DNA of 37,506 nt from a virus. Its lineage: Duplodnaviria; Caudoviricetes. The DNA lies in IMG/VR virus record IMGVR_UViG_3300039918_000045, positions 1-37,506 of that record; one strand, written 5' to 3'. Position 1 is the first letter of the stretch. Each line of letters starts with the position of its first letter. Below the pieces are notes generated by a model that worked only from the letters and a program-made list of their open reading frames with translations, did not search any database and was not told where the DNA came from. Of the stretch, positions 3,502 to 34,458 are shown one piece after another. A program made the position numbers and the translations under genes.

Positions 3502-4248
3502 GTGACCGAGGACGACAAGCAACGTTTCGCGTCCTGCGCCATGGCCTGTGCCGAGACCTATGGCCGCGACTTCAGCAAGGCGCAACTCCGCCTGTACTTC
3601 GGCGCGCTGCAGGCCCTACCGATCGAGGCGGTCGAGTTGGCCGTCCAGCGCCACATGGCGGACCCCGAAGCGGGGAAGTACTTCCCGAAGCCCGCCGACC
3701 TGCTGGCCCAGGCGCAGGGATTCCGCGGCGGCGACAACCGGCCGGGCGCAGACGAGGCATGGGCGCTGGCGCTGCGGTGCCGCGATGAATCCGACACTGT
3801 GGTCTGGACGGCAGAGATCGCCCAGGCGTTCGCCATCTGCCGCGCCGTGCTTGACGCGGGCGACAAGATCGGCGCGCGCCAGGCGTTCAAGGGCGCATAC
3901 GAGCGCATCGTGCATACCGCCCGCGAGGCGCGGCGGCCGGTCGCGTGGACCGTGTCGCTGGGCTGGGACGTTCAGCGGCGCGACGCAGAGCTCGCGCGCG
4001 CCCAGGCGGCCGGCCTGCTGACCGACGACGTCGTCGAGGCGCTGCTGCTGCCGGCGCCGAAGGAAACAGATCCCACGCCGCCAGACAAGGCGCGGGAGAA
4101 TCTGACCCGCCTGCGTGCCGAGCTGGCGAAGCTGGAATCGCCCAGCGCCAAGGCGGAAAGGATTCGCGTGCAGCGGCTGGAGGCTGACCGCGAAGCGACC
4201 GAGCAGAGGAAGCGCGACATTGCCGCGCAAGTTTCCGCTCGCCTTTGA
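3502..4248 (+). CDS. Helicase loader/inhibitor-like replication protein (P-position, DUF6475-like)
   Basis: Directly follows the initiator. Motif YFGALQ..PIEAVELAVQRHM...FPKPADLL, then ADEAWA. Confidence 0.65.
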   Translation: MTEDDKQRFASCAMACAETYGRDFSKAQLRLYFGALQALPIEAVELAVQRHMADPEAGKYFPKPADLLAQAQGFRGGDNRPGADEAWALALRCRDESDTVVWTAEIAQAFAICRAVLDAGDKIGARQAFKGAYERIVHTAREARRPVAWTVSLGWDVQRRDAELARAQAAGLLTDDVVEALLLPAPKETDPTPPDKARENLTRLRAELAKLESPSAKAERIRVQRLEADREATEQRKRDIAAQVSARL

Positions 4249-4250
4249 AT

Positions 4251-4264
4251 ATGCATAAATGGCT
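4251..4264. promoter_or_regulatory. Operator
   Basis: ATGCATAAATGGCT, a perfect consensus copy in an intergenic gap. Confidence 0.75.
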
Positions 4265-4277
4265 TACGAGGATCCCA

Positions 4278-4601
4278 ATGAACGCTACAGGTGCAGAACT
4301 GCGGGACGCCGGCATTGAGCGTGCGACCGACAACGCAGAGGCGGCCGCGCCCGGCTGGGCCGACCAGGCGCTCGACTACGTGAAGTGGTTCGCCAAGCAT
4401 GGCGGCCGTTTCAAGGCTGAGCATGTCCGCGATTACGCGATGAAGCAGGGCTTGCCGAACCCGCCGCACGCGCGGGCTTGGGGCGGGGTGATCCGCCGCG
4501 CCGCTGCGCTGGGTCTGATCGAGCGCGTGGGATTCGCGTCGTGCACGAACCCGGCGGCGCACTGCGCGCCCGTCGGGGTGTGGCAGGGGGTGTCCCAGTG
4601 A
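4278..4601 (+). CDS. Hypothetical phage protein
   Basis: RBS GAGGA then ATG. Contains PPHARAWGGVIRRAA, typical of a common phage family. Confidence 0.75.
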   Translation: MNATGAELRDAGIERATDNAEAAAPGWADQALDYVKWFAKHGGRFKAEHVRDYAMKQGLPNPPHARAWGGVIRRAAALGLIERVGFASCTNPAAHCAPVGVWQGVSQ

Positions 4602-5029
4602 AGACCGCCGAACTGTCCGGCGTCCAGCTCGACTACTGGGTGGCGCACATCGACAAACGGTGCGGCGGCCTGCGCTTCGAGTGGCGCGGCGAGCATTGGG
4701 TCGGGCTGGGCGACTTCGACGGCAAGACCGAGGTTGTCATCGCTGGCGCGAAGCCCGGCTTTCGCGCCTTCCTGGCGATACGCAAGCAGTACGGTCTCTC
4801 GGAGCGGGACATCTACCAGCCGTCGCGCGACTGGGCGCATGGCGGCCCGATCATTGAGCGGGAAGGAATCCAGCTATGGCCGGACACCGCAGACGACCAG
4901 AAGGACGCGGTGCCCGGTGTTTGGTTCGCCGCGGCCTGGCAGAAAGCAGAGCACCAGGGCGCGACGCCGCTGGAGGCAGCCATGCGCGCGTATGTCGCAA
5001 GCAAATTCGGAGAGGAGGTGACACCATGA
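4598..5029 (+). CDS. NinX family (DUF2591) protein
   Basis: LSGVQLDYWVA, YQPSRDWAHGGPIIEREGI and TPLEAAMRAYVASKFGEEV motifs. GTGA overlap with the upstream gene. Confidence 0.85.
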   Translation: MKTAELSGVQLDYWVAHIDKRCGGLRFEWRGEHWVGLGDFDGKTEVVIAGAKPGFRAFLAIRKQYGLSERDIYQPSRDWAHGGPIIEREGIQLWPDTADDQKDAVPGVWFAAAWQKAEHQGATPLEAAMRAYVASKFGEEVTP

Positions 5030-5226
5030 TTGCACTGGACGAAGCAGGCATGCCGATGCTGGCCGTTCCGACGGGTGGGTCGTTCGACCTGCCGCGCTGG
5101 CAAAGCTGCGCGAACCCCGAGCACGAGCCGCCCGGCCTGCTGCATATCCCGGCAGGGAAGGGGTACCGGCACGTGTGCCCAGGCTGCGGCGCCGTGCGCA
5201 TCATCACGAGCCCCGCCACGCTCTGA
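5026..5226 (+). CDS. Small zinc-binding protein
   Basis: ATGA coupling. C..PEHEPP...HVCPGCG motif. Confidence 0.7.
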   Translation: MIALDEAGMPMLAVPTGGSFDLPRWQSCANPEHEPPGLLHIPAGKGYRHVCPGCGAVRIITSPATL

Positions 5227-5253
5227 CCTGCGCAAATGCTTGGCTTCAGAAAT

Positions 5254-5308
5254 ATGCATAAATGCCTTGACACGAAGCCGCGCGCCACTACAATAGCCAT
5301 AAATGCAT
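5254..5308 (+). promoter_or_regulatory. Strong sigma70 promoter flanked by two operators
   Basis: TTGACA 5267-5272, 16 nt, TACAAT 5289-5294. Operators ATGCATAAATGCCT 5254-5267 and AGCCATAAATGCAT 5295-5308. Confidence 0.85.
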
Positions 5309-5325
5309 ACGACATGGAGCCAAGC

Positions 5326-5550
5326 ATGAAGACCCTGATTCAGAACCTGGCCCGCGCCATCGCTAACACCGTGCGCGAAACCCTGAAACCGTACCGCGTG
5401 GTCGTGCGCGGCAACGCCTTCGACGGCCACACGCACCGCGCGTGGTCGTTCGATGACGCGCTGACCTGGGCGAAGTGCTACCCGCGCAGCCTGGCCCGCG
5501 AGATCACCGTCACCACCCGCTTTGGCCGCTTCGTTGGGCGCGTGCGCTGA
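5326..5550 (+). CDS. Hypothetical protein
   Basis: GGAG then ATG directly after the promoter, 74 aa. Confidence 0.7.
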   Translation: MKTLIQNLARAIANTVRETLKPYRVVVRGNAFDGHTHRAWSFDDALTWAKCYPRSLAREITVTTRFGRFVGRVR

Positions 5551-5551
5551 C

Positions 5552-6025
5552 ATGCCGGGCACCAAGAAGCCGCGCAAGCCGTACCGCCCGCGTGGCATTG
5601 ACGGCGCCGCCCGGGCGATCGTCGGTTTGACGATGGCGAAAGTCCGGGCGTGCGGCATCACTGACACGGAAGCCGCGGCGCTGGAAACGGCAGTGCTGTC
5701 CGGTCTGGAGGAGATGCGCAAGGGCACGGCCACGCCGAACGAGTGGAACAGCGTCGCGCGTGGCATCAACCATGCGTGGACGCTGGCAAAGATGGGCGTC
5801 GGCGAGGAAGCGCTGCCGACCATCACCGAGGCCGAGGCCGGCATGAAGCGCGCCGAGGCCCGATACAAGGCGACGGGGCGCCTGGTGCTGGATGGCAACG
5901 GACTGAGTGCCGTGCGTCTAGCTCTGGAGCTGTGGGGTCAGCAGCTCCGCATGTGCACCGTCGGGGAAGTGGACCGCGCGACCCGGTTGGTCGAGCAGAA
6001 GTACTGGGAGAAACAGGCATCATGA
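5552..6025 (+). CDS. Hypothetical protein
   Basis: Basic N-terminus MPGTKKPRKPYRPR, high GC3 codon usage, coupled to neighbouring genes. Confidence 0.75.
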   Translation: MPGTKKPRKPYRPRGIDGAARAIVGLTMAKVRACGITDTEAAALETAVLSGLEEMRKGTATPNEWNSVARGINHAWTLAKMGVGEEALPTITEAEAGMKRAEARYKATGRLVLDGNGLSAVRLALELWGQQLRMCTVGEVDRATRLVEQKYWEKQAS

Positions 6026-6420
6026 AAACGATCGAGATCAAGGGCTGGATCTTCGCGCGCCCGACATGGGACGCGGAAGGCGTCAACTTCGAGTTCAGCA
6101 CTCACGACTACACGGAGTGGGCAAAGAACCGTTCTATCGACACCGACGGCGCCTACAAGTCGTATCGCAAGGTGTGCGATCACGTCATTCGTATGGATGT
6201 CCCCGAGTTCGACCCGAAAACGATGATGGTCGAGGCGTTGGAAGCGGAGAAGATCGCACTACGTGCCGAATTCACCCGCCGGGTAACTGAGATCGAAGGT
6301 CAGATCAGCAAGCTGCTCGCTCTACCTTTCGTGCCTACAGCGGAAGTCGAACCTGCGCCCACCCGCGTGGTGGGTGACGTCTCCGACGTCGTTTTTGACG
6401 ACAGCGATCTGCCACTCTGA
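6022..6420 (+). CDS. Hypothetical protein with coiled coil and acidic C-terminal tail
   Basis: ATGA overlap. Ends FDDSDLPL. Confidence 0.75.
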   Translation: MKTIEIKGWIFARPTWDAEGVNFEFSTHDYTEWAKNRSIDTDGAYKSYRKVCDHVIRMDVPEFDPKTMMVEALEAEKIALRAEFTRRVTEIEGQISKLLALPFVPTAEVEPAPTRVVGDVSDVVFDDSDLPL

Positions 6421-6436
6421 CCCCAAGGGACTGACC

Positions 6437-6865
6437 GTGAGCGAAAAGCAAATCTACCGTCTGGTGCACGGCCAGGCCCGCGCCGGCGCGATGGCCGCGA
6501 TCAAGGCGGCGCCCGACGGCTTCATGGTGACGATCCAGCCGCCGACCCGCACGCTCGAGCAGAACGCTCGCATGTGGGCGATGCTGTCCGATGTGTCGAA
6601 GCAGGTCGTGTGGCACGGCCGCAAGCTGTCGCCCGAGGAATGGAAGCACGTCTTCTCCGCGGCGCTGGACAAGCAGGACGTCGTGCCGGGCATCGAGGGC
6701 GGCTTCGTGGTGCTGGGCAAGAGCACGAGCAAAATGTCGATCCGCGAGATGACCGCGCTGCAGGAGCTCATGTCCGCCTTCGGCGCGGAGCGCGGCGTGC
6801 AGTGGAGCGAGCCTGGCCTGCAGGGGTACGAGGATCTGGCGGCCAGCGCGCGGAGGGCCGCGTAA
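6437..6865 (+). CDS. ninB: NinB family recombination protein
   Basis: RTLEQNARMWAMLSDVSKQVVWHGRKLSPEEWKHVF...STSKMSIREM...FGAERGVQWS. Confidence 0.92.
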   Translation: MSEKQIYRLVHGQARAGAMAAIKAAPDGFMVTIQPPTRTLEQNARMWAMLSDVSKQVVWHGRKLSPEEWKHVFSAALDKQDVVPGIEGGFVVLGKSTSKMSIREMTALQELMSAFGAERGVQWSEPGLQGYEDLAASARRAA

Positions 6866-7239
6866 TGCTGGCGCGCCGCACGCCGATGAAACGCACGTCG
6901 GGCCTGAAGCAGGGCGGCCAGATCGCGCGCACCGCCTGGAAGAAGAAGGGCCCGAAGCGCAAGCCCAAGGCGAACCGCGACCACATGGGCGCTGTCGCCG
7001 CGCTGCCTTGCGTGGTCTGCCTGCGGCTTGGGATCACAACCTACGGGGTGCAGGTGCACCACCTGAAGGAAGGGCAGGGCACCGCGCGCGCCAGCGACTT
7101 CGACACCATGCCGTTGTGTGAGCCGCACCATACCGGCGATCTTGGCGTGCATGGCTTGGGCACCAAGGGTTTCCCGAAGCATTACGGTTTCACAGAACGC
7201 GATTTGCTTGCTGACACGCGCCGTTTGCTCGGGCTATAA
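6865..7239 (+). CDS. Ref-like (DUF968-type) HNH nuclease
   Basis: Basic N-terminus and LPCVVC...VHH...PLCEPHH...GVH zinc/HNH pattern. TAATG coupling. Confidence 0.8.
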   Translation: MLARRTPMKRTSGLKQGGQIARTAWKKKGPKRKPKANRDHMGAVAALPCVVCLRLGITTYGVQVHHLKEGQGTARASDFDTMPLCEPHHTGDLGVHGLGTKGFPKHYGFTERDLLADTRRLLGL

Positions 7240-7254
7240 TATGCACAAATGGCT
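7211..7254 (+). promoter_or_regulatory. Promoter with operator
   Basis: CTGACA 7211-7216, 18 nt, TATAAT 7235-7240. Operator ATGCACAAATGGCT 7241-7254 covers the start site. Confidence 0.7.
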
Positions 7255-7270
7255 TAACCGGAGTGCGAAC

Positions 7271-7525
7271 ATGCTTTGCGCGGATCTGGACGATTTCCAG
7301 CCGGGCGAGACGGTCATCACGCCGTCGGGCCGGTTGGCAGAGGTGAAGAAGCTGCTTGCGGGCACGAGCAAAAAGGACTGCTTCAGTCGCCTGACGTGCC
7401 GGTATCTGGACGGCGGCCCGCGCGACTTGGTCACACTGCAGCCGCATCAGGTCCGCAAGGCGCCGATCGTGGAACGAGAGACCGACCCGCGGCAGTTGGA
7501 TTTGTTCGCGGTCAAATATGCGTAA
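7271..7525 (+). CDS. Hypothetical protein with C-terminal QLDLF (clamp-binding-like) motif
   Basis: GGAG then ATG, 84 aa, ends DPRQLDLFAVKYA. Confidence 0.7.
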   Translation: MLCADLDDFQPGETVITPSGRLAEVKKLLAGTSKKDCFSRLTCRYLDGGPRDLVTLQPHQVRKAPIVERETDPRQLDLFAVKYA

Positions 7526-7553
7526 ATGGCTCGCACGATAGCCATAATGATCA
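7518..7553 (+). promoter_or_regulatory. Operator pair with -10 element
   Basis: ATGCGTAAATGGCT 7518-7531 and half-conserved AGCCATAATGATCA 7540-7553, which contains CATAAT 7543-7548. Confidence 0.6.
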
Positions 7554-7554
7554 C

Positions 7555-8055
7555 ATGAGCGAAGTAACGAAACCAGCGCGGACGCGCAGCCAGATCGGCA
7601 GGAGCAACAGAGCTAAGGGCCAGGTGGGTGAGCGGCAGATCGCGCGCATTCTCTGCGACTTGCTGGGGCTCGACATCCGCCGGCGCGTGCGTAACCACGC
7701 TGGCGAGTCGGACCTGACTGGCATGCATGGCTGGTCGATCGAAGTGAAGCACTGCCAGCGCCCGACGATTCGCGCCTGGTGGGAACAGACCGTCGCGCAG
7801 GCCAAGGACGGCGACATCCCGGTCCTGTTCTACCGGTTGCCGCGCCAAGACTGGCGGGCCGTCGTGCACGTGTCGACGTTCACCGGCGGCGAGGCGCCAG
7901 CGCACTTCGACTTCACGGTGGAGATGGGCGTGCAGGCGTTCGCGGAACTGTGGCGCGAGGTGGAGAGCAAACGAATTTTGGACCGGGCCCGTGCACAGCA
8001 CGTCGCGCAGTCCGAAAAGAACCTGGCCGTGATGGCTGGGCAGTCTGTGCAGTGA
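7555..8055 (+). CDS. PD-(D/E)XK Holliday junction resolvase-like nuclease
   Basis: RAKGQVGERQIA...SDL....WSIEVK...WWEQ...PVLFYR pattern of Hjc-like phage resolvases. Confidence 0.8.
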   Translation: MSEVTKPARTRSQIGRSNRAKGQVGERQIARILCDLLGLDIRRRVRNHAGESDLTGMHGWSIEVKHCQRPTIRAWWEQTVAQAKDGDIPVLFYRLPRQDWRAVVHVSTFTGGEAPAHFDFTVEMGVQAFAELWREVESKRILDRARAQHVAQSEKNLAVMAGQSVQ

Positions 8056-27900: not shown

Positions 27901-30900
27901 ATGGCGGTTCGAGAGTTTTCCGGGCAGTTGGACGGTGTGCAAGAGTTCGACGGTCTGCTGGATTCCGAACTGCCGCCCGATCGGGCAGCGTTCGGCGCAT
28001 ACCGTACGCCGAAGCAGAAGCGCGCGCCGGCACGCCCCGACATTGGCGTCATGGGCGCCGCCACGCCGGAGCCTGCCGCTCCACTCAGCCCGGCTACGCA
28101 GGCCGTCGTCGACCGCTGGCAGGACCGCCTTACTCGGCCGGTAGAGGCCGGTACGATCGGTCCGATCCAAGGGCCCGAGCCTTCCGTCGGTAGCGTCGTT
28201 TCCGGCCTCGTGAATTCCGTCGTGTCTGGCGGACAGAAGACCCGCGCCGGCATGCGCACCATCATTGCTGACATGATCGGCTCGCCCGACGCCACGGCTA
28301 CTGCCCGGCGTGAGGTCGCCGACGCCCAGCTTCGCGACGCCACCACCACCCCCGCATTCGAGAGCCCGACCGCCGCCGGTATCTATGGCGGTGTCGCGAG
28401 CACGCTGCAGCAGATTCCCGCCGTGGCCGCCGGCCTGGCAACGCGCAGCCCCGCAGTCGCTACTTCCGCCATGGTCGCGCCGCTCGTGCCGCAGCAGTAT
28501 GGCGTGTACCGCGGCGCTGGCGCTGACCCGCTGACCGCTGGTGCTGGCGCTGCCGGGTATGCAGGTATCGAGTACCTGACCGAGCGCCTGCCGATGGGCG
28601 TGATTGTGAACAAACTGGGCAAGGTTGGCGCGATGAAGCTGCTAACCGACTGGATGGTCAAGGAAGGGCTAGGCGAGCAGGCCGCAACTATCGGGCAAGA
28701 TGCCATCGACAAGGCGATCGCTGAACCTGACAAGACATGGGGCGATTACCTGCGCGAGCGCCCTAGCGCGGCATACCAGACGCTACTCGCTACGATGACG
28801 CAGGGCGGCATTATGGGCGGCGTCAATCATGGCATTCGCGCCGTGCAGCGCGCAGAGGACCGCGCCGTCGCAGAGGATGCACGGCAGGTCGCACTGACCA
28901 AGGCCGCCGACTTCTTCAAGCCGCCCGTCGGCGTCGCGCGCGAGCTGCCCGCCGATGTTGTGCTGGACGGCGAGGCGCCGCCTGCTGCCCCGGCCGTTCC
29001 GCCTGTCACCGTGCCGCCGGCCCCGGTGCCCGCACCCATCGCCGCCGCACCGATGCCCGCGCCGCAGCCCGTTGTGCCGTCGCCGCTGGAGCAAGCCGCG
29101 CCGGCCGTGGCTGACATCGTGACGCCGCCAACCGCACCGAATCAGCCGGCCGAGGTTCTGGCCGAGCCGATCGAGCAGGAGATCCGCGCGACGCAGGGTA
29201 TGCAGCAGCGCCCGGTGTCGCAGTGGACTGATGCCGACTACATCGGCCAGGCCGAGACTGCGCCGGAAATTGTTCCTGCCATTGAGCAGCCAGCCGCACG
29301 GCAACAGGTGCCGGCTGGTGCGCCGGACCCGGTGCCGTCGCCGCAGCCGACAGCTACCCAGAATCTGCAAGCCGCTCAGGTCGCGGCCGCGGCGCAGGAT
29401 CAACATGCCGTGAATCATCCGGCGATGCTCTCCGATAAAGCGATGCAGATAACGCAGCCGTCGGAAGGCTTGCGTCCCGGCGATGTGGTGGCCGCCACAG
29501 GCAGGCCGTTCGCCACCCAGGCGCAGGCCAAGGCCGAAGCGAAGAACGCCGGCCCGGGCTGGCGCGTAGCGCGCGGCGGTGGCGGGTTCGTTGTCCGCTA
29601 CCAGCCGCCCAGCGAGCGGCAGATCGCCAACGCAAAGCGCCTGGCGGAGCGCCAGACCAGCATCGATAGCGAGCGCGACAGCATGTTTGCAGCGATCGCG
29701 AAGCTGGGCGGCATCAGCCGTGACGAGGTCGTCAGCAAGTGGGGCATTGACCCTGCAGAACTGAAGGGCCTGTTTGGCGCGGGCATCAAGCGCGTTGCCA
29801 CCGGTGGCGGAATGTCCATCGACGCTATGGGCGAGGCGCTGGCCGAGTACGGATACCTGTCGCGCGACGAGCACGGCAAGCACGACACGCGCGAGTTGGA
29901 GGAGCTTTTCGACTCCGAACTGCGTGGGGAGAAGCACTATACTCCGCAAGGATGGGAGCAGGCGCTGCGCGACCGCCAAGCTGCCGAGTACGAGGAATAC
30001 CTGAATCAGCAGGATCTCGAAGCGGCCGGCGCCGGCAACTTCACCGACGAACAGATGGATGCGCTCGACGCCATCCTTGGCAGCCCTGCCGAGGATGATG
30101 CGGTATCGGCGTTTCTCCACAGCATCAGCGAGGCCGACAATGCCCAAAGCCCAACCGCCGAAGAAGACGTCGGCAACGCTGCCGCCGCAGAGGCAGCAGC
30201 AGATCAAGCAAGCACTCGGGAAGCTGTCGCCCCAAATGAAGAAGGAAGTCATCGAGGCGGCGCAGAAGCTGATCGAGACCCGCAAGGCGCGGATAGCGCA
30301 GGACAACGCGCCACTGACTTTGCCCTCGGCTCCGAAACCTTAGACGAGGCGCGGGCCCGCACCCAGCGCGAAGACCAACAGCGCGCCGACCAGGCACGCC
30401 AGCGCCGCGAGGATGACCGCCGCGCGCAGGCCGATGCCATGCGCGACGACTTTGTCCTGACCGGCAGCGATCGCGACGCCGACCAAGCTGCAGCACGCGG
30501 ACAAGAAGCATTGTTCTCCCGATCGGCTATGAAGTCGGTCGACGCGAACATCCGCCGCGGAACCGACGCTATGCAGAAGGCGATTACGGAGCAGCGCGAC
30601 GTGCATCGGGCCATGTATCGGTCGGATCTCGGGTGGATTGACTTCGTATGGGGTGACTCGAAGCGGGGGATCGCGCACGTCATCCGTCAGCGCATGGCGA
30701 AAGATGGAATGTCCGCCTCTGATGTGAAGCGCATGCTGACGTCGGAACTCATCGAGGCGATTGCCCGCGGGGAAGAGGTCTCCCGCCGCCAGTCCGGCGA
30801 GATGAAGTCCGTGCGCATTGAGCACAACGGGTTCGCCGCTATCCTGATCAAATGGCCGGGTAGCAACGGCTGGCTGATGAACGGCTATGAGGTTGTGAGC

Positions 30901-33900
30901 AAGGAAGAAGCCCTTGCCCGCAAGAAGAAGGGGGGGAACCCAGGTGCGACGCCGGCCGGTTCTGATGCACGGCGTCCTACGCACGAAGACACTACGCTTG
31001 CCCGTGTCGACGCGGGAGCTGGATTCGTGGCCTCCGATTCGACCGCACCAGCCAAGACCGATGCCGCCGATACGCAGCGGGACACTACAGAGAGTGGCAG
31101 CCCACAGGGAGCGGATGACGATTCCATTGTAGCGCCAAATTCGCATAGGGATATGTCCCGCGGCGCGGCCCGTGGCATTTCTGCCGAATCGGTTCGCGAG
31201 GCCATAGCCGACGACATCTACGGCCACGATGTCGACGTCTACAACAGCATGGACGACGCGCCCGACTACGTGCGCGAGCAGGCTGCAGGCGAGGGCGCCG
31301 AAAACATCGAAGGATTCTGGGATAGCCGCGCCAATCGCGTCGCCCTGATCGCCTCGAACATCGATTCGCCGGAGCGCGCAGTGCAGGTCGCCCGTCACGA
31401 ACTGCTTGCCCACTATGGTCTAGAGAACATGCTAGGCGCGGAGGAGATGGGCCGGCTGGCGCAGCGCGTCATCACTGCCGAGAAGGACGGGAACAAGGCG
31501 ATCGCCGAGGCCGCGGCCAAGGTAGACCGCACGCAGCCCGGCCTGACGCCGGAGCGCCGCGCGCGCGAGATCGTTGCAGTCATGGCCGAATCGGGCGCGC
31601 ACAATAGCATCGTGCGCCGCGTGCTAGACGCTATCCGCCAATTCCTGCGGAAGGTCGGCTTCGTCAAATCAGACGCCACCGACGCCGAGATCGCGAAGCT
31701 GTTGCGCGAAACGCAGACGTACCTGCGCGAGAAGGGTGCAGAGCGCTCCGCAGAATCGGGTACGTTGTTCTCCGGTCGGGACCGCATCGACTACAGCCAG
31801 GACGAATTGAACTTCGGCGCGCGCCAATCGTTCGAGGTGCCCGAGCCGCGCCTGTGGGACAACATCGTCCGCGCGCTGCAGGACAACAAGATCGACCTAA
31901 AGCGCGTACAGGATGCCATTCGCAAGGCTGGCAATACGATTCGTGAGCGCTCGGACGCCTACCTGAATGAGGAGCTGTATCACGGCCGCGTGTCCGCCCA
32001 GGTCGACGATCTGGTGGACCGCCGCGTTACGCCGCTGCTGAAGGCGGTGCATGAATCCGGCCTGTCGCTGGCCGAGGTCAACCGGTATCTGTTCGCGCGA
32101 CACGCGCCGGAGCGAAACGAGCAGCTTGCGAAGATCAATCCGCACCGCCGCCACAACCAGGCGCTGTCCGGCATGAGCAACACCGAGGCCGCCGGGATCC
32201 TTGGCGCGTTCCGCAACGAGGGGAAGACCGAGAAGCTGGAGCGCATCGCGGCCATGGTCGACGCGATCACCAAGGAATCGCGCCGCCGCATCGTGTCGTC
32301 GGGGCTGGAGCAGCGCGACGTCGTGGATGCGTGGGAGGCAGCGTATAAGAACTACGTGCCGTTGATGCAGGACATGCCTAACCACGGCCGCCGCAAGGTC
32401 GGCGGGTTCGACGTGCGCGGTCCGGAGTCGCAGCGCTCGCTAGGCCAGTCCGACAGCAACATCGCGAAGGCGGCCATCCAGCAGGACATCATCGCCAACG
32501 TTATTGCCCAGGCGCAGACCACGATCCAGCGCGCCGAGAAGGCGAAGGTCGCGCGGTCACTGCTGGACCTGGCCCGCGAGTTCCCGAACGACAAATTTTG
32601 GCGCGTCGACCAGCCGCCGAAGAAGAAGCGCATCAACCCCGACACGGGCCTTGTGGAGCTGGCTGACGATCCGAACTTCAAGGCGAAGGAAAATGTCCTG
32701 ACCGTGAAGGAGAACGGGGTCGAGCACTTCATCGTGTTCAACGAGCGCGACGAGCGCGCTATGCGCCTGGCCGAGGCGATGCAGAGTCTCGACGCCCCGC
32801 AACTTCCGTGGGCGATCGAGGCATTCGGCAAGGTGACGCGCTACCTTTCCCAGTGGATCACCGCGCGTAACCCGCTTTTTTGGATCACCAACTTCGCACG
32901 CGATGTTCAGGGTGCAGCCTTCAACCTGCAGAACACGCCGATCGCCGGCAAAGAGGCCAAGGTGCTCGCCAGCATCCCGAAGGCCATGGCCGGCTATTGG
33001 AAGATCGTGCGCGGCGATGGCACCGGCCAGTGGGCGGACTACGCGCGTCAGTTCAAAGAAGACGGATCCGAGACCGGCTATGTAAAACCGTTCGAGAACC
33101 CCGCCGAGCGGATGGCCGACCTCGAAAAGCAGGTCGAGGACATGAAGCAGGGTAAGGCCGATCCGCGCCGCCTGGCCCGCTCGCTGGTCGAGATGGTCGA
33201 CGACTACAACAACATCGTCGAGAACGGCGTGCGCCTGGCGGTCTATCAGACGGCGCGCGATGCCGGCGTCAGCAACCGGCAAGCGGCCAGCCTGGCGAAG
33301 AACATCACGGTCAACTTCAACCGCCGCGGCTCGCAGACCGTTTTCGCGAATTCCCTGTACATGTTCTTCAATGCGAACGTGCAGGGCAACGCGCGCTTCC
33401 TTGGCTCGCTTGCGAAGAACCGCCGTGCGCAGGTGGTGGCCGGGGGGCTGGTCGCGATGGGCTTCGTAATGGATGCCGTGAACCGCGCCGTCGGCGGGGA
33501 TGACGACGAGACCGGCAAGAAGAAGTACGACGAGATTCCCGACTTCGAGAAGGAGCGCAACTGGTTCATCATGTCGCCATCCGGCAAGTACGTGAAGGTG
33601 CCGCTGCCGATCGGCCCCCACGTCATGGTCAACGCCGGCCGCCTCATGTCCGAAATGATCTTCAAGAAGGGCGGCGGGGTGCTGGACAAGGGCGCGAGCA
33701 TGACCCGCGTCGCGCTGGACGCTTTTAACCCGATGGGCTCGCCAGGCTCGTTCTCGCAATTCTGGCTGCCGTCGGTGGTGAAGCCGCTGGCCCAGGCTGC
33801 CGAGAACAAGAGCTTCGCCGGTGGCCCGGTCTACCGTGAGGGCGATGACCGTAGCTACACTGGCCCGGCATACGATCGCGCCTTCCGCTCAACGGGCGAC

Positions 33901-34458
33901 CAATGGAAGGCGGCGTCGAAGCTGCTGAACGACGTCACCGGCGGGGACAGCGTCAAGCCTGGCGCGATTGACGTGCCGCCGGAAGTGCTGCGCCTGATGT
34001 TCACCAGCTACCTATTCCCCGGTCTGACCCAGACGGCCGACAAGGCAATCACGACCGCGAGCGATTCGGCCAAGGGAAAGAAGGTCGAAGCGTCGCAGAT
34101 CCCCGCGCTGTCGCGGTTCTATGGCGAGGCGCCGGAGGAGCGGGCGCAGGAGCGCGCTTTCTACGAGGAAACGAAGAAACTGAAGCAGACCGTCGGCCAG
34201 GCCAAGCGCTATGCGAAGGACGGCAACCGCGAGGGCATGGAGCGCGTACTTACCGAACTGGGTGACGGCGATATTGCCGCCGGCAAGAAGCGGATGGGCG
34301 AATTCGACGCTGCGGAAAAGGCGCTGCTGAACCTGAACAAGGCCCGGAAGCGCATCGAGACGGACAACAAGCCCGACGCCGAACAGCGAGAGCAGTTGAA
34401 CGAGATCGAGGACCGACGCATGAAGGTAATGCGCCGGATCCTCGCGGGGGCAAAATAA
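27901..34458 (+). CDS. Large polyvalent ejection protein with PBECR-type RNase domain, zincin-like HExxxH domain and LPD38-like C-terminus
   Basis: 2185 aa. LGWIDFVWG..KRGIAHVIRQR...WLMNGYE at about 30510-30900, ARHELLAHYGL at about 31390-31420, and EIPDFEKERNWFI...YVKVPLP at about 33530-33610. Confidence 0.85.
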   Translation: MAVREFSGQLDGVQEFDGLLDSELPPDRAAFGAYRTPKQKRAPARPDIGVMGAATPEPAAPLSPATQAVVDRWQDRLTRPVEAGTIGPIQGPEPSVGSVVSGLVNSVVSGGQKTRAGMRTIIADMIGSPDATATARREVADAQLRDATTTPAFESPTAAGIYGGVASTLQQIPAVAAGLATRSPAVATSAMVAPLVPQQYGVYRGAGADPLTAGAGAAGYAGIEYLTERLPMGVIVNKLGKVGAMKLLTDWMVKEGLGEQAATIGQDAIDKAIAEPDKTWGDYLRERPSAAYQTLLATMTQGGIMGGVNHGIRAVQRAEDRAVAEDARQVALTKAADFFKPPVGVARELPADVVLDGEAPPAAPAVPPVTVPPAPVPAPIAAAPMPAPQPVVPSPLEQAAPAVADIVTPPTAPNQPAEVLAEPIEQEIRATQGMQQRPVSQWTDADYIGQAETAPEIVPAIEQPAARQQVPAGAPDPVPSPQPTATQNLQAAQVAAAAQDQHAVNHPAMLSDKAMQITQPSEGLRPGDVVAATGRPFATQAQAKAEAKNAGPGWRVARGGGGFVVRYQPPSERQIANAKRLAERQTSIDSERDSMFAAIAKLGGISRDEVVSKWGIDPAELKGLFGAGIKRVATGGGMSIDAMGEALAEYGYLSRDEHGKHDTRELEELFDSELRGEKHYTPQGWEQALRDRQAAEYEEYLNQQDLEAAGAGNFTDEQMDALDAILGSPAEDDAVSAFLHSISEADNAQSPTAEEDVGNAAAAEAAADQASTREAVAPNEEGSHRGGAEADRDPQGADSAGQRATDFALGSETLDEARARTQREDQQRADQARQRREDDRRAQADAMRDDFVLTGSDRDADQAAARGQEALFSRSAMKSVDANIRRGTDAMQKAITEQRDVHRAMYRSDLGWIDFVWGDSKRGIAHVIRQRMAKDGMSASDVKRMLTSELIEAIARGEEVSRRQSGEMKSVRIEHNGFAAILIKWPGSNGWLMNGYEVVSKEEALARKKKGGNPGATPAGSDARRPTHEDTTLARVDAGAGFVASDSTAPAKTDAADTQRDTTESGSPQGADDDSIVAPNSHRDMSRGAARGISAESVREAIADDIYGHDVDVYNSMDDAPDYVREQAAGEGAENIEGFWDSRANRVALIASNIDSPERAVQVARHELLAHYGLENMLGAEEMGRLAQRVITAEKDGNKAIAEAAAKVDRTQPGLTPERRAREIVAVMAESGAHNSIVRRVLDAIRQFLRKVGFVKSDATDAEIAKLLRETQTYLREKGAERSAESGTLFSGRDRIDYSQDELNFGARQSFEVPEPRLWDNIVRALQDNKIDLKRVQDAIRKAGNTIRERSDAYLNEELYHGRVSAQVDDLVDRRVTPLLKAVHESGLSLAEVNRYLFARHAPERNEQLAKINPHRRHNQALSGMSNTEAAGILGAFRNEGKTEKLERIAAMVDAITKESRRRIVSSGLEQRDVVDAWEAAYKNYVPLMQDMPNHGRRKVGGFDVRGPESQRSLGQSDSNIAKAAIQQDIIANVIAQAQTTIQRAEKAKVARSLLDLAREFPNDKFWRVDQPPKKKRINPDTGLVELADDPNFKAKENVLTVKENGVEHFIVFNERDERAMRLAEAMQSLDAPQLPWAIEAFGKVTRYLSQWITARNPLFWITNFARDVQGAAFNLQNTPIAGKEAKVLASIPKAMAGYWKIVRGDGTGQWADYARQFKEDGSETGYVKPFENPAERMADLEKQVEDMKQGKADPRRLARSLVEMVDDYNNIVENGVRLAVYQTARDAGVSNRQAASLAKNITVNFNRRGSQTVFANSLYMFFNANVQGNARFLGSLAKNRRAQVVAGGLVAMGFVMDAVNRAVGGDDDETGKKKYDEIPDFEKERNWFIMSPSGKYVKVPLPIGPHVMVNAGRLMSEMIFKKGGGVLDKGASMTRVALDAFNPMGSPGSFSQFWLPSVVKPLAQAAENKSFAGGPVYREGDDRSYTGPAYDRAFRSTGDQWKAASKLLNDVTGGDSVKPGAIDVPPEVLRLMFTSYLFPGLTQTADKAITTASDSAKGKKVEASQIPALSRFYGEAPEERAQERAFYEETKKLKQTVGQAKRYAKDGNREGMERVLTELGDGDIAAGKKRMGEFDAAEKALLNLNKARKRIETDNKPDAEQREQLNEIEDRRMKVMRRILAGAK
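30140..30343 (+). CDS. Probable overprinted 67-aa protein in the +1 frame of the giant gene
   Basis: GAGG 30130-30133 then ATG 30140. This frame has host-like G/C-ending codons while the host frame is A/T-ending and low-complexity over the same stretch. Confidence 0.6.
   Translation: MPKAQPPKKTSATLPPQRQQQIKQALGKLSPQMKKEVIEAAQKLIETRKARIAQDNAPLTLPSAPKP
30936..31119 (-). ncRNA. Two tandem ~90-nt structured RNA units, antisense within the giant gene
   Basis: Units 31119-31030 and 31026-30936, each closed by a terminal stem with G-U pairs favouring the minus strand. Shared boxes at 93-nt period. TACAAT at 31131-31126. Confidence 0.6.

Follow-up and report, generated by a model that had tools for sequence, protein, structure and literature searches.

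The window analysed here is a stretch of 37,506 nt (37.5 kb) from a tailed-phage genome, IMG/VR record IMGVR_UViG_3300039918_000045, which is classed as a provirus. The virion gene block of this temperate phage, with terminase, portal, major head and tail fibre genes upstream, is closed by a plus-strand gene for a polyvalent protein of 2185 aa (27901..34458; open reading frame (ORF) call, Pfam PBECR1 and LPD38). The protein contains a predicted ribonuclease (RNase) domain, PBECR1 (30517..30894, plus strand). In the linker that follows it, the minus strand carries two structured units, the domain-proximal unit 2 (30937..31025) and the distal, promoter-proximal unit 1 (31030..31118); a -10 box, TACAAT, is located on the same strand 7 nt before P1, the closing stem, of unit 1 (31126..31131). 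Comparison with homologous loci indicates that both units belong to a previously undescribed family of 89-nt three-way-junction RNAs, for which a role as RNA antidote to the adjoining domain is considered below.

The Pfam match to PBECR1 (PF18809) covers 30610-30894 (aa 904-998, E 1.5e-12), scores 48.4 bits against a cut-off of 27.6 for the window protein, and is the only assignment that Pfam makes in the domain region. The histidine of its GxxH motif, H926 (encoded at 30676-30678), is invariant in our domain alignment A1, and 117 of 120 domain-unit pairs retain this catalytic-type residue. In the structure model of the domain (pLDDT 87.9), H926 sits in helix 51-63, and the last 38 residues make up the beta-sheet. 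The top five fold matches are all BECR or RelE toxins (BECR toxins of contact-dependent growth inhibition (CDI) systems, RelE and colicin D), all of them weak with Z < 8; for 6cp9, Z is 5.5. The Foldseek E is 3.3e-3. Another match, 7m5f, is a BECR-fold toxin according to the accessible text of PMC8616854. The accessible part of Iyer 2017 (PMC5512222) predicts PBECR as an RNase in late-gene polyvalent proteins and proposes mRNA or crRNA targets. From this source and the gene context, the PBECR1 domain is predicted to be a ribonuclease, and the polyvalent protein is likely packaged in the virion and injected.

An antisense RNA family at the end of PBECR1

The first clue to the family was one peptide trace recurring in the 30 residues after PBECR1 of homologous proteins. 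In an Acinetobacter phage, where the gene stops right after the domain, the same motif lies in non-coding DNA behind TTGAAA-17-TATTAT. The first-pass annotation of the window had claimed a structured antisense RNA next to PBECR and had proposed to survey the reverse strand downstream of homologous domains. Scans with a 14-row domain alignment gave 80, 54 and 63 loci (for the viral scan, the best 80 of 116), from which 116 distinct downstream regions were obtained. Using a DNA profile seeded from those same regions, we found the unit antisense at the domain end in 114 of 116, and on the sense strand in none; the two regions missed by the profile both match the covariance model of the family, R1. 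Together with the covarying stems described below, this survey bears out an antisense RNA family tied to PBECR1. The unit lies within ~ 0-45 nt of the domain end. The tandem arrangement that had been pointed out holds for the window, with single units in 92 of the surveyed loci and double units in 22.

Because the domain-seeded profile risked circularity, IMG/VR was also scanned with patterns of DNA only. A protein-blind pattern returned 35 loci, 33 of which directly adjoin PBECR1. With a looser pattern of the same kind, 60 of 69 loci adjoin PBECR1, seven are orphans, and two are chance matches. Proteins with several PBECR1 domains carry a unit after every one of them (three domains in L208, two each in L089 and L106). 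Among library representatives, 146 domains are followed by at least 40 residues; the peptide trace in relaxed form is present behind 126 of these, as against 0 of 113 control stretches, and the strict peptide pattern behind 76; clear misses are mostly distant, weak-scoring domains. The strict DNA pattern gave no match in 401 genomes of one class, with four control matches, and the covariance model, with only 27 candidates per genome scored, gave two matches, one of them an orphan, among 151 genomes belonging to one family. In IMG/VR, a single-protein scan and the exact pattern of the window boxes produced no matches. A weak covariance-model match, L252, was rejected as a low-complexity run of alanine codons.

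R1 does not match the loci of Helicobacter phages, which carry distant, jhp1044-like relatives of PBECR1 (domain ends at L332:5363 and 7412, L333:5351, L334:4321, L335:5354 and L338:3351). Behind these domains, the antisense strand carries an AT-rich three-way junction of the form P1-UUU-P2-UGUA(A)-P3, together with a box resembling -10. A scripted parse recovered this junction for 7 of 11 such domains (L336 being doubtful) and, on the sense strand, for 0 of 11; visual inspection suggests three arms for L337, L339 (Pseudomonas phage Itty13) and L340 as well. These junctions likely represent a diverged sister family that R1 misses.

The fold was derived from 80 non-redundant units, of which 67 were aligned and 13 left out owing to insertions, deletions or misplaced ends. 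The alignment is gapless over 98 columns, with a mean identity of 46%, and its mutual information gives the order P1 (7 bp), CUC, P2 (~ 10 bp) with loop L2, YGUAG, a bulged P3 with the 8-nt loop L3, and CAY. In the 67 rows, 85% of the cells are paired, compared to 57% after shuffling and 39-44% after sliding (score 0.718 vs 0.223), a figure computed on the same rows that gave the structure. In 33 held-out units, picked with a pattern leaving every counted column free, the paired share is 81% vs 51% in shuffles. Within the stems, G-U exceeds A-C by 196 to 44 in the training set and by 83 to 27 in the held-out set, indicating that the minus strand is the RNA strand, in keeping with the claim of the first-pass annotation that the G-U pairs are specific to it. 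One pair between L2 and L3 (columns 28-70) is Watson-Crick in 59 of the 67 training rows, with 14 double changes. An extended L2-L3 kissing helix was rejected (3.51 vs 3.54 in shuffles).

Among coding units, two third codon positions with fourfold degeneracy are constant, in 55/55 and 54/55 units, although the residue varies among P, A, S and T; the amino acids do not explain this silent conservation. All 86 units in coding context keep one frame, and the non-coding ones are free (5/4/4). The most upstream unit is preceded by TAnnnT at 54 of 103 loci, as against 11 of 103 control windows, and the unit is likely transcribed from its own promoter.

Against this family background, the two window units could be compared with the first-pass annotation. 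Both were located on the minus strand with the 93-nt period, the sequence boxes and the TACAAT (31131-31126) that it had given. Their place was right as well, whereas the spacing of 3 nt was not: the family unit measures 89 nt from P1 to P1, and the units (31118-31030 and 31025-30937) lie 4 nt apart. The N18 segments do not each form a hairpin of their own, as had been thought; their first 8-9 nt are the 5' strand of P2, pairing with GTGTC plus N4, and the remainder is loop L2. Of the boxes shared by the two units, only GCUCCC, ACG..GUAG, GCGUAG and CAYC are conserved in the family, whereas TGTC, GCATC, GGCYGG and GTCG turned out to be freely varying stem strands. The pair is also no array of equivalent repeats, since the units are of different types and disagree at 14 of 15 loop positions.

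Unit 2 is a standard proximal unit. It consists of P1 (31025-31019/30943-30937), CUCC (31018-31015), P2 (31014-31006/30990-30982) with L2 (31005-30991; variable part GGCAAGC), CGUAG (30981-30977), P3 with L3 UCAGAACC (30965-30958), and CAC (30946-30944). Its L2-L3 pair is G-C, and its R1 score is 73.6 bits, as a member of the training alignment. It is likely the cognate RNA of the PBECR1 domain in the window. A 14-codon Lys/Glu-rich insert (30895-30936), whose minus strand is a pyrimidine run after P1, separates the domain from unit 2; the offset is 43 nt here and 1-16 nt at most loci. Unit 1, outside the training set, matches R1 with 32.8 bits (E 7e-7) and falls into a class named 'UCUCU' (15 distinct copies), characterized by a closed L2 helix and a variable P3. 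Compensatory changes are evident in the alignment of this class (CTCT/AGAG, CACT/AGTG, CATT/AATG), whose members are, in this sample, only distal or orphan and never adjoin a domain. Each window unit meets 22 of 27 consensus pairs. Folded alone, neither does better than its shuffles (z -0.97 and -1.31), so that the significance of the fold derives from the homologues and not from single-sequence folding. The window units matched no Rfam family at E up to 10, and a repeat finder run over 29500-33000 did not list them.

Loop types and units away from a domain

The 97 units compared fall into 73 loop types. These types do not follow a quick tree of the whole domain. For comparison with the loops, the domain was divided into its last 38 aa (C-term) and the remaining N-core. 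Among pairs with a C-term at least 60% identical but an N-core less than 70% identical, 17 of 30 share loops, with stems 43% identical against a background of 35%. Conversely, when the N-core is at least 70% but the C-term less than 50% identical, loops are shared by only 1 of 82 pairs. Nearest-neighbour prediction of the loops (94 units) reaches 0.62 from the C-term, 0.54 from the N-core and 0.52 from the RNA stems, compared to 0.44 at random. Beside near-identical domains, the loops of 22 units are invariant, and only five stem columns vary. Column-wise mutual information between protein and RNA was set aside, as it is dominated by kinship.

Distal units behave differently from proximal ones. 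In 18 of 19 cases, at least 5 of 15 loop bases are different between a distal unit and the proximal unit of the same locus. Of the 35 distal or orphan units, 16 have loops no more than 2 bases away from a type found in proximal position in another phage, where 6% is expected under the null (one row of this comparison was out of register). Units occur without a PBECR1 match in eight records (G006, G007, G411-G415 and G512), with G000 and G005 serving as positive controls in the search for the domain. Such a distribution resembles that of orphan immunity genes in CDI loci, as described in the accessible text of PMC9086364, and suggests that distal and orphan units might confer cross-immunity.

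G413 (L322) is a 13.7-kb element with terminal repeats, an integrase, a replication initiator and a helicase, in which no capsid gene was detected. Together with L266 and L283 it forms a satellite-like group with one, two or three orphan units at a shared site, alongside genes for an integrase, a replication initiator, a DnaB helicase, a PmgG-like protein and a transglycosylase; the 16 ORFs scanned gave no capsid match. In a prophage, L275 (G415), two orphan units (1390-1583) lie behind TTGACA-17-TAAAAT, downstream of a block of Hdf-like and LPD1 genes, and are directly followed by a seven-repeat CRISPR-like mini-array (1610-2030), the repeats of which are presumably of a type I-F-like kind. 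A provirus without PBECR1 match (L263:1495-1839, G411:29237-29334) holds three units of different types in frame within a polyvalent gene, and a fourth unit 3.7 kb away from these. Finally, L402:1504-1592, in genome G512, which has no PBECR1 match, is an orphan of the common CGUAGGU/UCAAAUCC type in the tail of an LPD3-containing ORF, converging on an umuC-like gene.

Beyond the units, the polyvalent gene encodes a domain without Pfam match that contains the motif HELLAH (31394-31420), which we take to resemble the zincin metallopeptidase (MPTase) motif of polyvalent proteins. Further on lies the LPD38 domain (33520..34107, plus strand; Pfam, aa 1874-2069, E 1.2e-37). A consensus scan of the window found no terminator, and PADLOC gave no match.

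A candidate RNA immunity factor and its rivals

The reading we lean toward, with moderate confidence, is that the unit serves as a cognate immunity factor, made of RNA, against an RNase delivered by the virion, and that orphan copies provide cross-immunity. It builds on the observed RNA family, its fold by covariation, its strand, the fixed placement, the loop types, their coupling to the protein C-terminus, and the foreign types of distal and orphan units. The fixed junction (CUCC, YGUAG, CAY) would hold loops L2 and L3 side by side, and the loops would form the surface read by the beta-sheet of the enzyme. The unit likely binds and blocks the PBECR1 domain it adjoins, as a matched antidote. 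While the protein is being made late in infection, the RNA would shield the producing cell; it would also shut off the injected enzyme once phage transcription begins and, in a lysogen, neutralise incoming enzyme. The C-terminal half of the domain and the RNA may be swapped as a cassette, with the displaced RNA remaining as distal unit. Enzyme-free elements, i.e., other phages and the satellite-like circle, would then keep units as cross-immunity in the manner of orphan immunity genes. Transcription, binding, inhibition, their timing and cross-immunity are the inferred part of this reading.

A number of observations weigh against this reading. For more than half of the distal and orphan units (19 of 35), window unit 1 among them, this sample contains no close cognate type, and most of the orphan records may be incomplete. 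The L2-L3 pair forms in only 12 of 33 held-out units (null 6.9), with 11 C-A combinations, as found in one subfamily. Identity over the whole domain predicts the loops poorly (rho 0.13), and their coupling to the protein may partly reflect physical linkage, as the pairs are not independent. A proposed code between the last aromatic residue (F/Y/W) and L3 base 67 failed on 28 new rows and on independent pairs, and was rejected. The best fold match of the domain is weak (7m5f, Z 6.2, rmsd (root-mean-square deviation) 4.2 over 96 aligned residues). In the window, TACAAT stands without a -35 box, as the first-pass annotation had noted, and the consensus scan found no full sigma70 promoter. Furthermore, contig sets from four RNA runs span the Acinetobacter unit with even depth and without interruption there. 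Such contigs cannot show expression level or strand; the even depth amounts to no support and to weak evidence against high abundance of the unit in standard libraries. Four raw RNA-read runs for the Acinetobacter homologue lacked the locus.

In the same Acinetobacter material, a stretch ~ 750 nt upstream of the PBECR1 match (L033:600-776) does break into very deep contig pieces, with a depth of 4000-8000 in two RNA runs, from two studies, where the flanks have 30-80. This segment is possibly an abundant prophage small RNA.

The first-pass annotation had considered the units as antitoxin, decoy or guide. Antitoxin or decoy is kept as the leading role, while the guide function found no support and seems unlikely. 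As a guide or activating cofactor, the RNA would form a nuclease complex with PBECR1 in which L2 and L3 select the target RNA, and tandem units would widen its range. Such a role would account for the fixed 89-nt geometry with two variable loops, for the many loop types, and for tandem units that differ. It would also fit the same or near-same loops found beside distant domains (26-45% identical), as well as the differing loops of close ones. However, the free loop segments measure only 5-7 nt, which is too short for a strong complementarity test, and within that limit the guide-like variable segments found no target in the RNAs compared. The loops show no excess complement or identity to 61 tRNAs (from the hosts of two relatives and E. 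coli), to E. coli 16S and 23S rRNA, or to their own coding region, and tests for mimicry of or complement to anticodon loops, tRNA 3'-CCA ends and rRNA were null in 19 of 20 cases. The single nominal result, a same-sense match of L3 in 23S rRNA (p 0.005), was rejected as scattered and driven by repeated loops. Loops that stay invariant beside near-identical domains while stems vary, and that track the protein C-terminus, are likewise not expected of a guide, for which orphans without enzyme would demand extra assumptions.

About equally improbable is that the RNA itself is the effector, acting as a decoy for a host defence protein or as a substrate matured by PBECR1, and that the two travel together because both act on one host system. 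Its own promoter, suggesting that it is likely made early, the orphans beside a CRISPR-like mini-array (L275) and in the satellite-like circle, and those in polyvalent-protein linkers after other domains (L245, L247, L402) would all suit an independent effector; near-obligate one-to-one placement at PBECR1 ends and the coupling of the loops would not be expected of a decoy, and no resemblance to any Rfam family was found. We regard as still less probable a cis-antisense silencer akin to a type I antitoxin, which would pair with the polyvalent mRNA and curb leaky expression of the toxic domain in the lysogen. The RNA is a perfect antisense of that mRNA, with a convergent promoter and its 3' end at the last codons of the domain, and where the gene stands alone, in Acinetobacter, it overlaps the sequence immediately behind the stop. 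Yet pairing in cis needs neither a conserved junction, nor a fixed length, nor loop types; non-coding orphans lack a cis target, and second units of foreign type would add nothing. Very improbable, finally, is that there is no RNA gene at all, only a conserved peptide linker or a structure at the DNA level. The single frame of all coding-context units and the insignificant single-sequence folds would agree with this, but not third positions that are fixed while the amino acid varies, non-coding copies that keep the motif, a strand-specific G-U bias and an upstream -10 box.

An extended version of the immunity reading, to which we give tentative and somewhat lesser credence than to the immunity factor itself, is an RNA-based counterpart of polymorphic toxin-immunity systems. 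Injected BECR RNases would each come with a tRNA/Alu-like antisense RNA inside their own coding sequence, two loops would encode enzyme specificity, and prophages and satellites would collect a library of cross-immunity. In its boldest form, the loops would also direct the enzyme, making it a compact RNA-programmed RNase (~ 125 aa plus 89 nt).

Relation to known systems

Since PBECR domains were predicted in 2017, no partner, target or control has been known for them, and a dedicated RNA at nearly every PBECR1 copy makes their function directly testable. To our knowledge, the immunity factors of delivered polymorphic effectors are proteins. An antidote role would make the unit an RNA immunity factor for such an effector and a second fold class of RNA antitoxins. 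It would also reveal a layer of conflict between phages, and between phages and satellites, inside coding sequence, where screens for intergenic RNAs miss it. Orthogonal RNase-inhibitor pairs would then be available from nature, in dozens of enzyme-RNA combinations that differ in their loops; if the unit is a guide, the domain and its RNA would make up an RNA-directed nuclease of very small size.

In the searched literature, which was thin in subscription papers, we found no mention of an RNA linked to PBECR. The accessible part of Iyer 2017 (PMC5512222) mentions neither a partner RNA nor an immunity factor, and the available text of a 2026 BECR preprint (10.64898/2026.08.28.747851) has zero occurrences of ncRNA, non-coding or small RNA. 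The searchable supplements of Fremin 2023 (PMC10690425) gave no match, and an unnamed candidate there could overlap non-coding copies; the available supplements of PMC6182133 gave no match either.

In overall shape, the unit recalls the signal recognition particle's (SRP's) Alu domain, which according to the accessible text of PMC4231752 is a three-way junction with a UGU(A) connector between two hairpins that touch by their loops, and a fold called tRNA-like. Here YGUAG joins P2 and P3, and the corresponding connector in the Helicobacter phages is UGUAA. The likeness is architectural only, in the absence of an Rfam SRP match and of a loop-loop pseudoknot of 3-5 bp. Units of fixed length with conserved boxes and variable segments near a nuclease are also a feature of TIGR arrays, CRISPR arrays and RNA anti-CRISPRs. 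In contrast to these, most of the variable bases of the PBECR1 units are paired stem strands, and the short loops fall into types linked to the protein, with no target in the tRNAs, rRNAs and own genes compared.

The type III toxin-antitoxin systems toxIN, cptIN and tenpIN, as covered by the accessible text of PMC12283969, likewise combine an endoribonuclease with a short structured RNA, sometimes in tandem non-identical copies; for PBECR1, the binding of RNA and enzyme is what we infer. In those systems, the RNA gene lies upstream of the toxin on the same strand, the two are separated by a terminator, the RNA adopts an H-type pseudoknot fold, and its partner is a ToxN-like toxin. PBECR1 units, in contrast, lie downstream and antisense, often in coding sequence, form a three-way junction with a loop-loop contact of one pair at most, and adjoin a BECR domain of a likely virion protein, their tandem copies being of different types. 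Most likely, the units act like a type III antitoxin, yet they depart from toxIN, cptIN and tenpIN in layout, fold and toxin family.

Polymorphic toxin and CDI systems, within the accessible text of PMC9086364 and PMC8616854, share with the PBECR1 loci a BECR fold, here a predicted one (best matches 7m5f, 6cp9, colicin D), a partner encoded directly after the toxin, exchange of the C-terminus (here in the 82 pairs with similar N-core and diverged C-term), and the retention of displaced or orphan partners. Immunity proteins of CDI BECR toxins block the active site (PMC9086364). There, the partner is an immunity protein and delivery proceeds by a secretion system, whereas here the candidate partner is an RNA and delivery would be by the virion. 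In place of an immunity-protein gene right after the toxin, PBECR1 is internal to its long ORF, and the conserved element adjacent to it is the antisense RNA.

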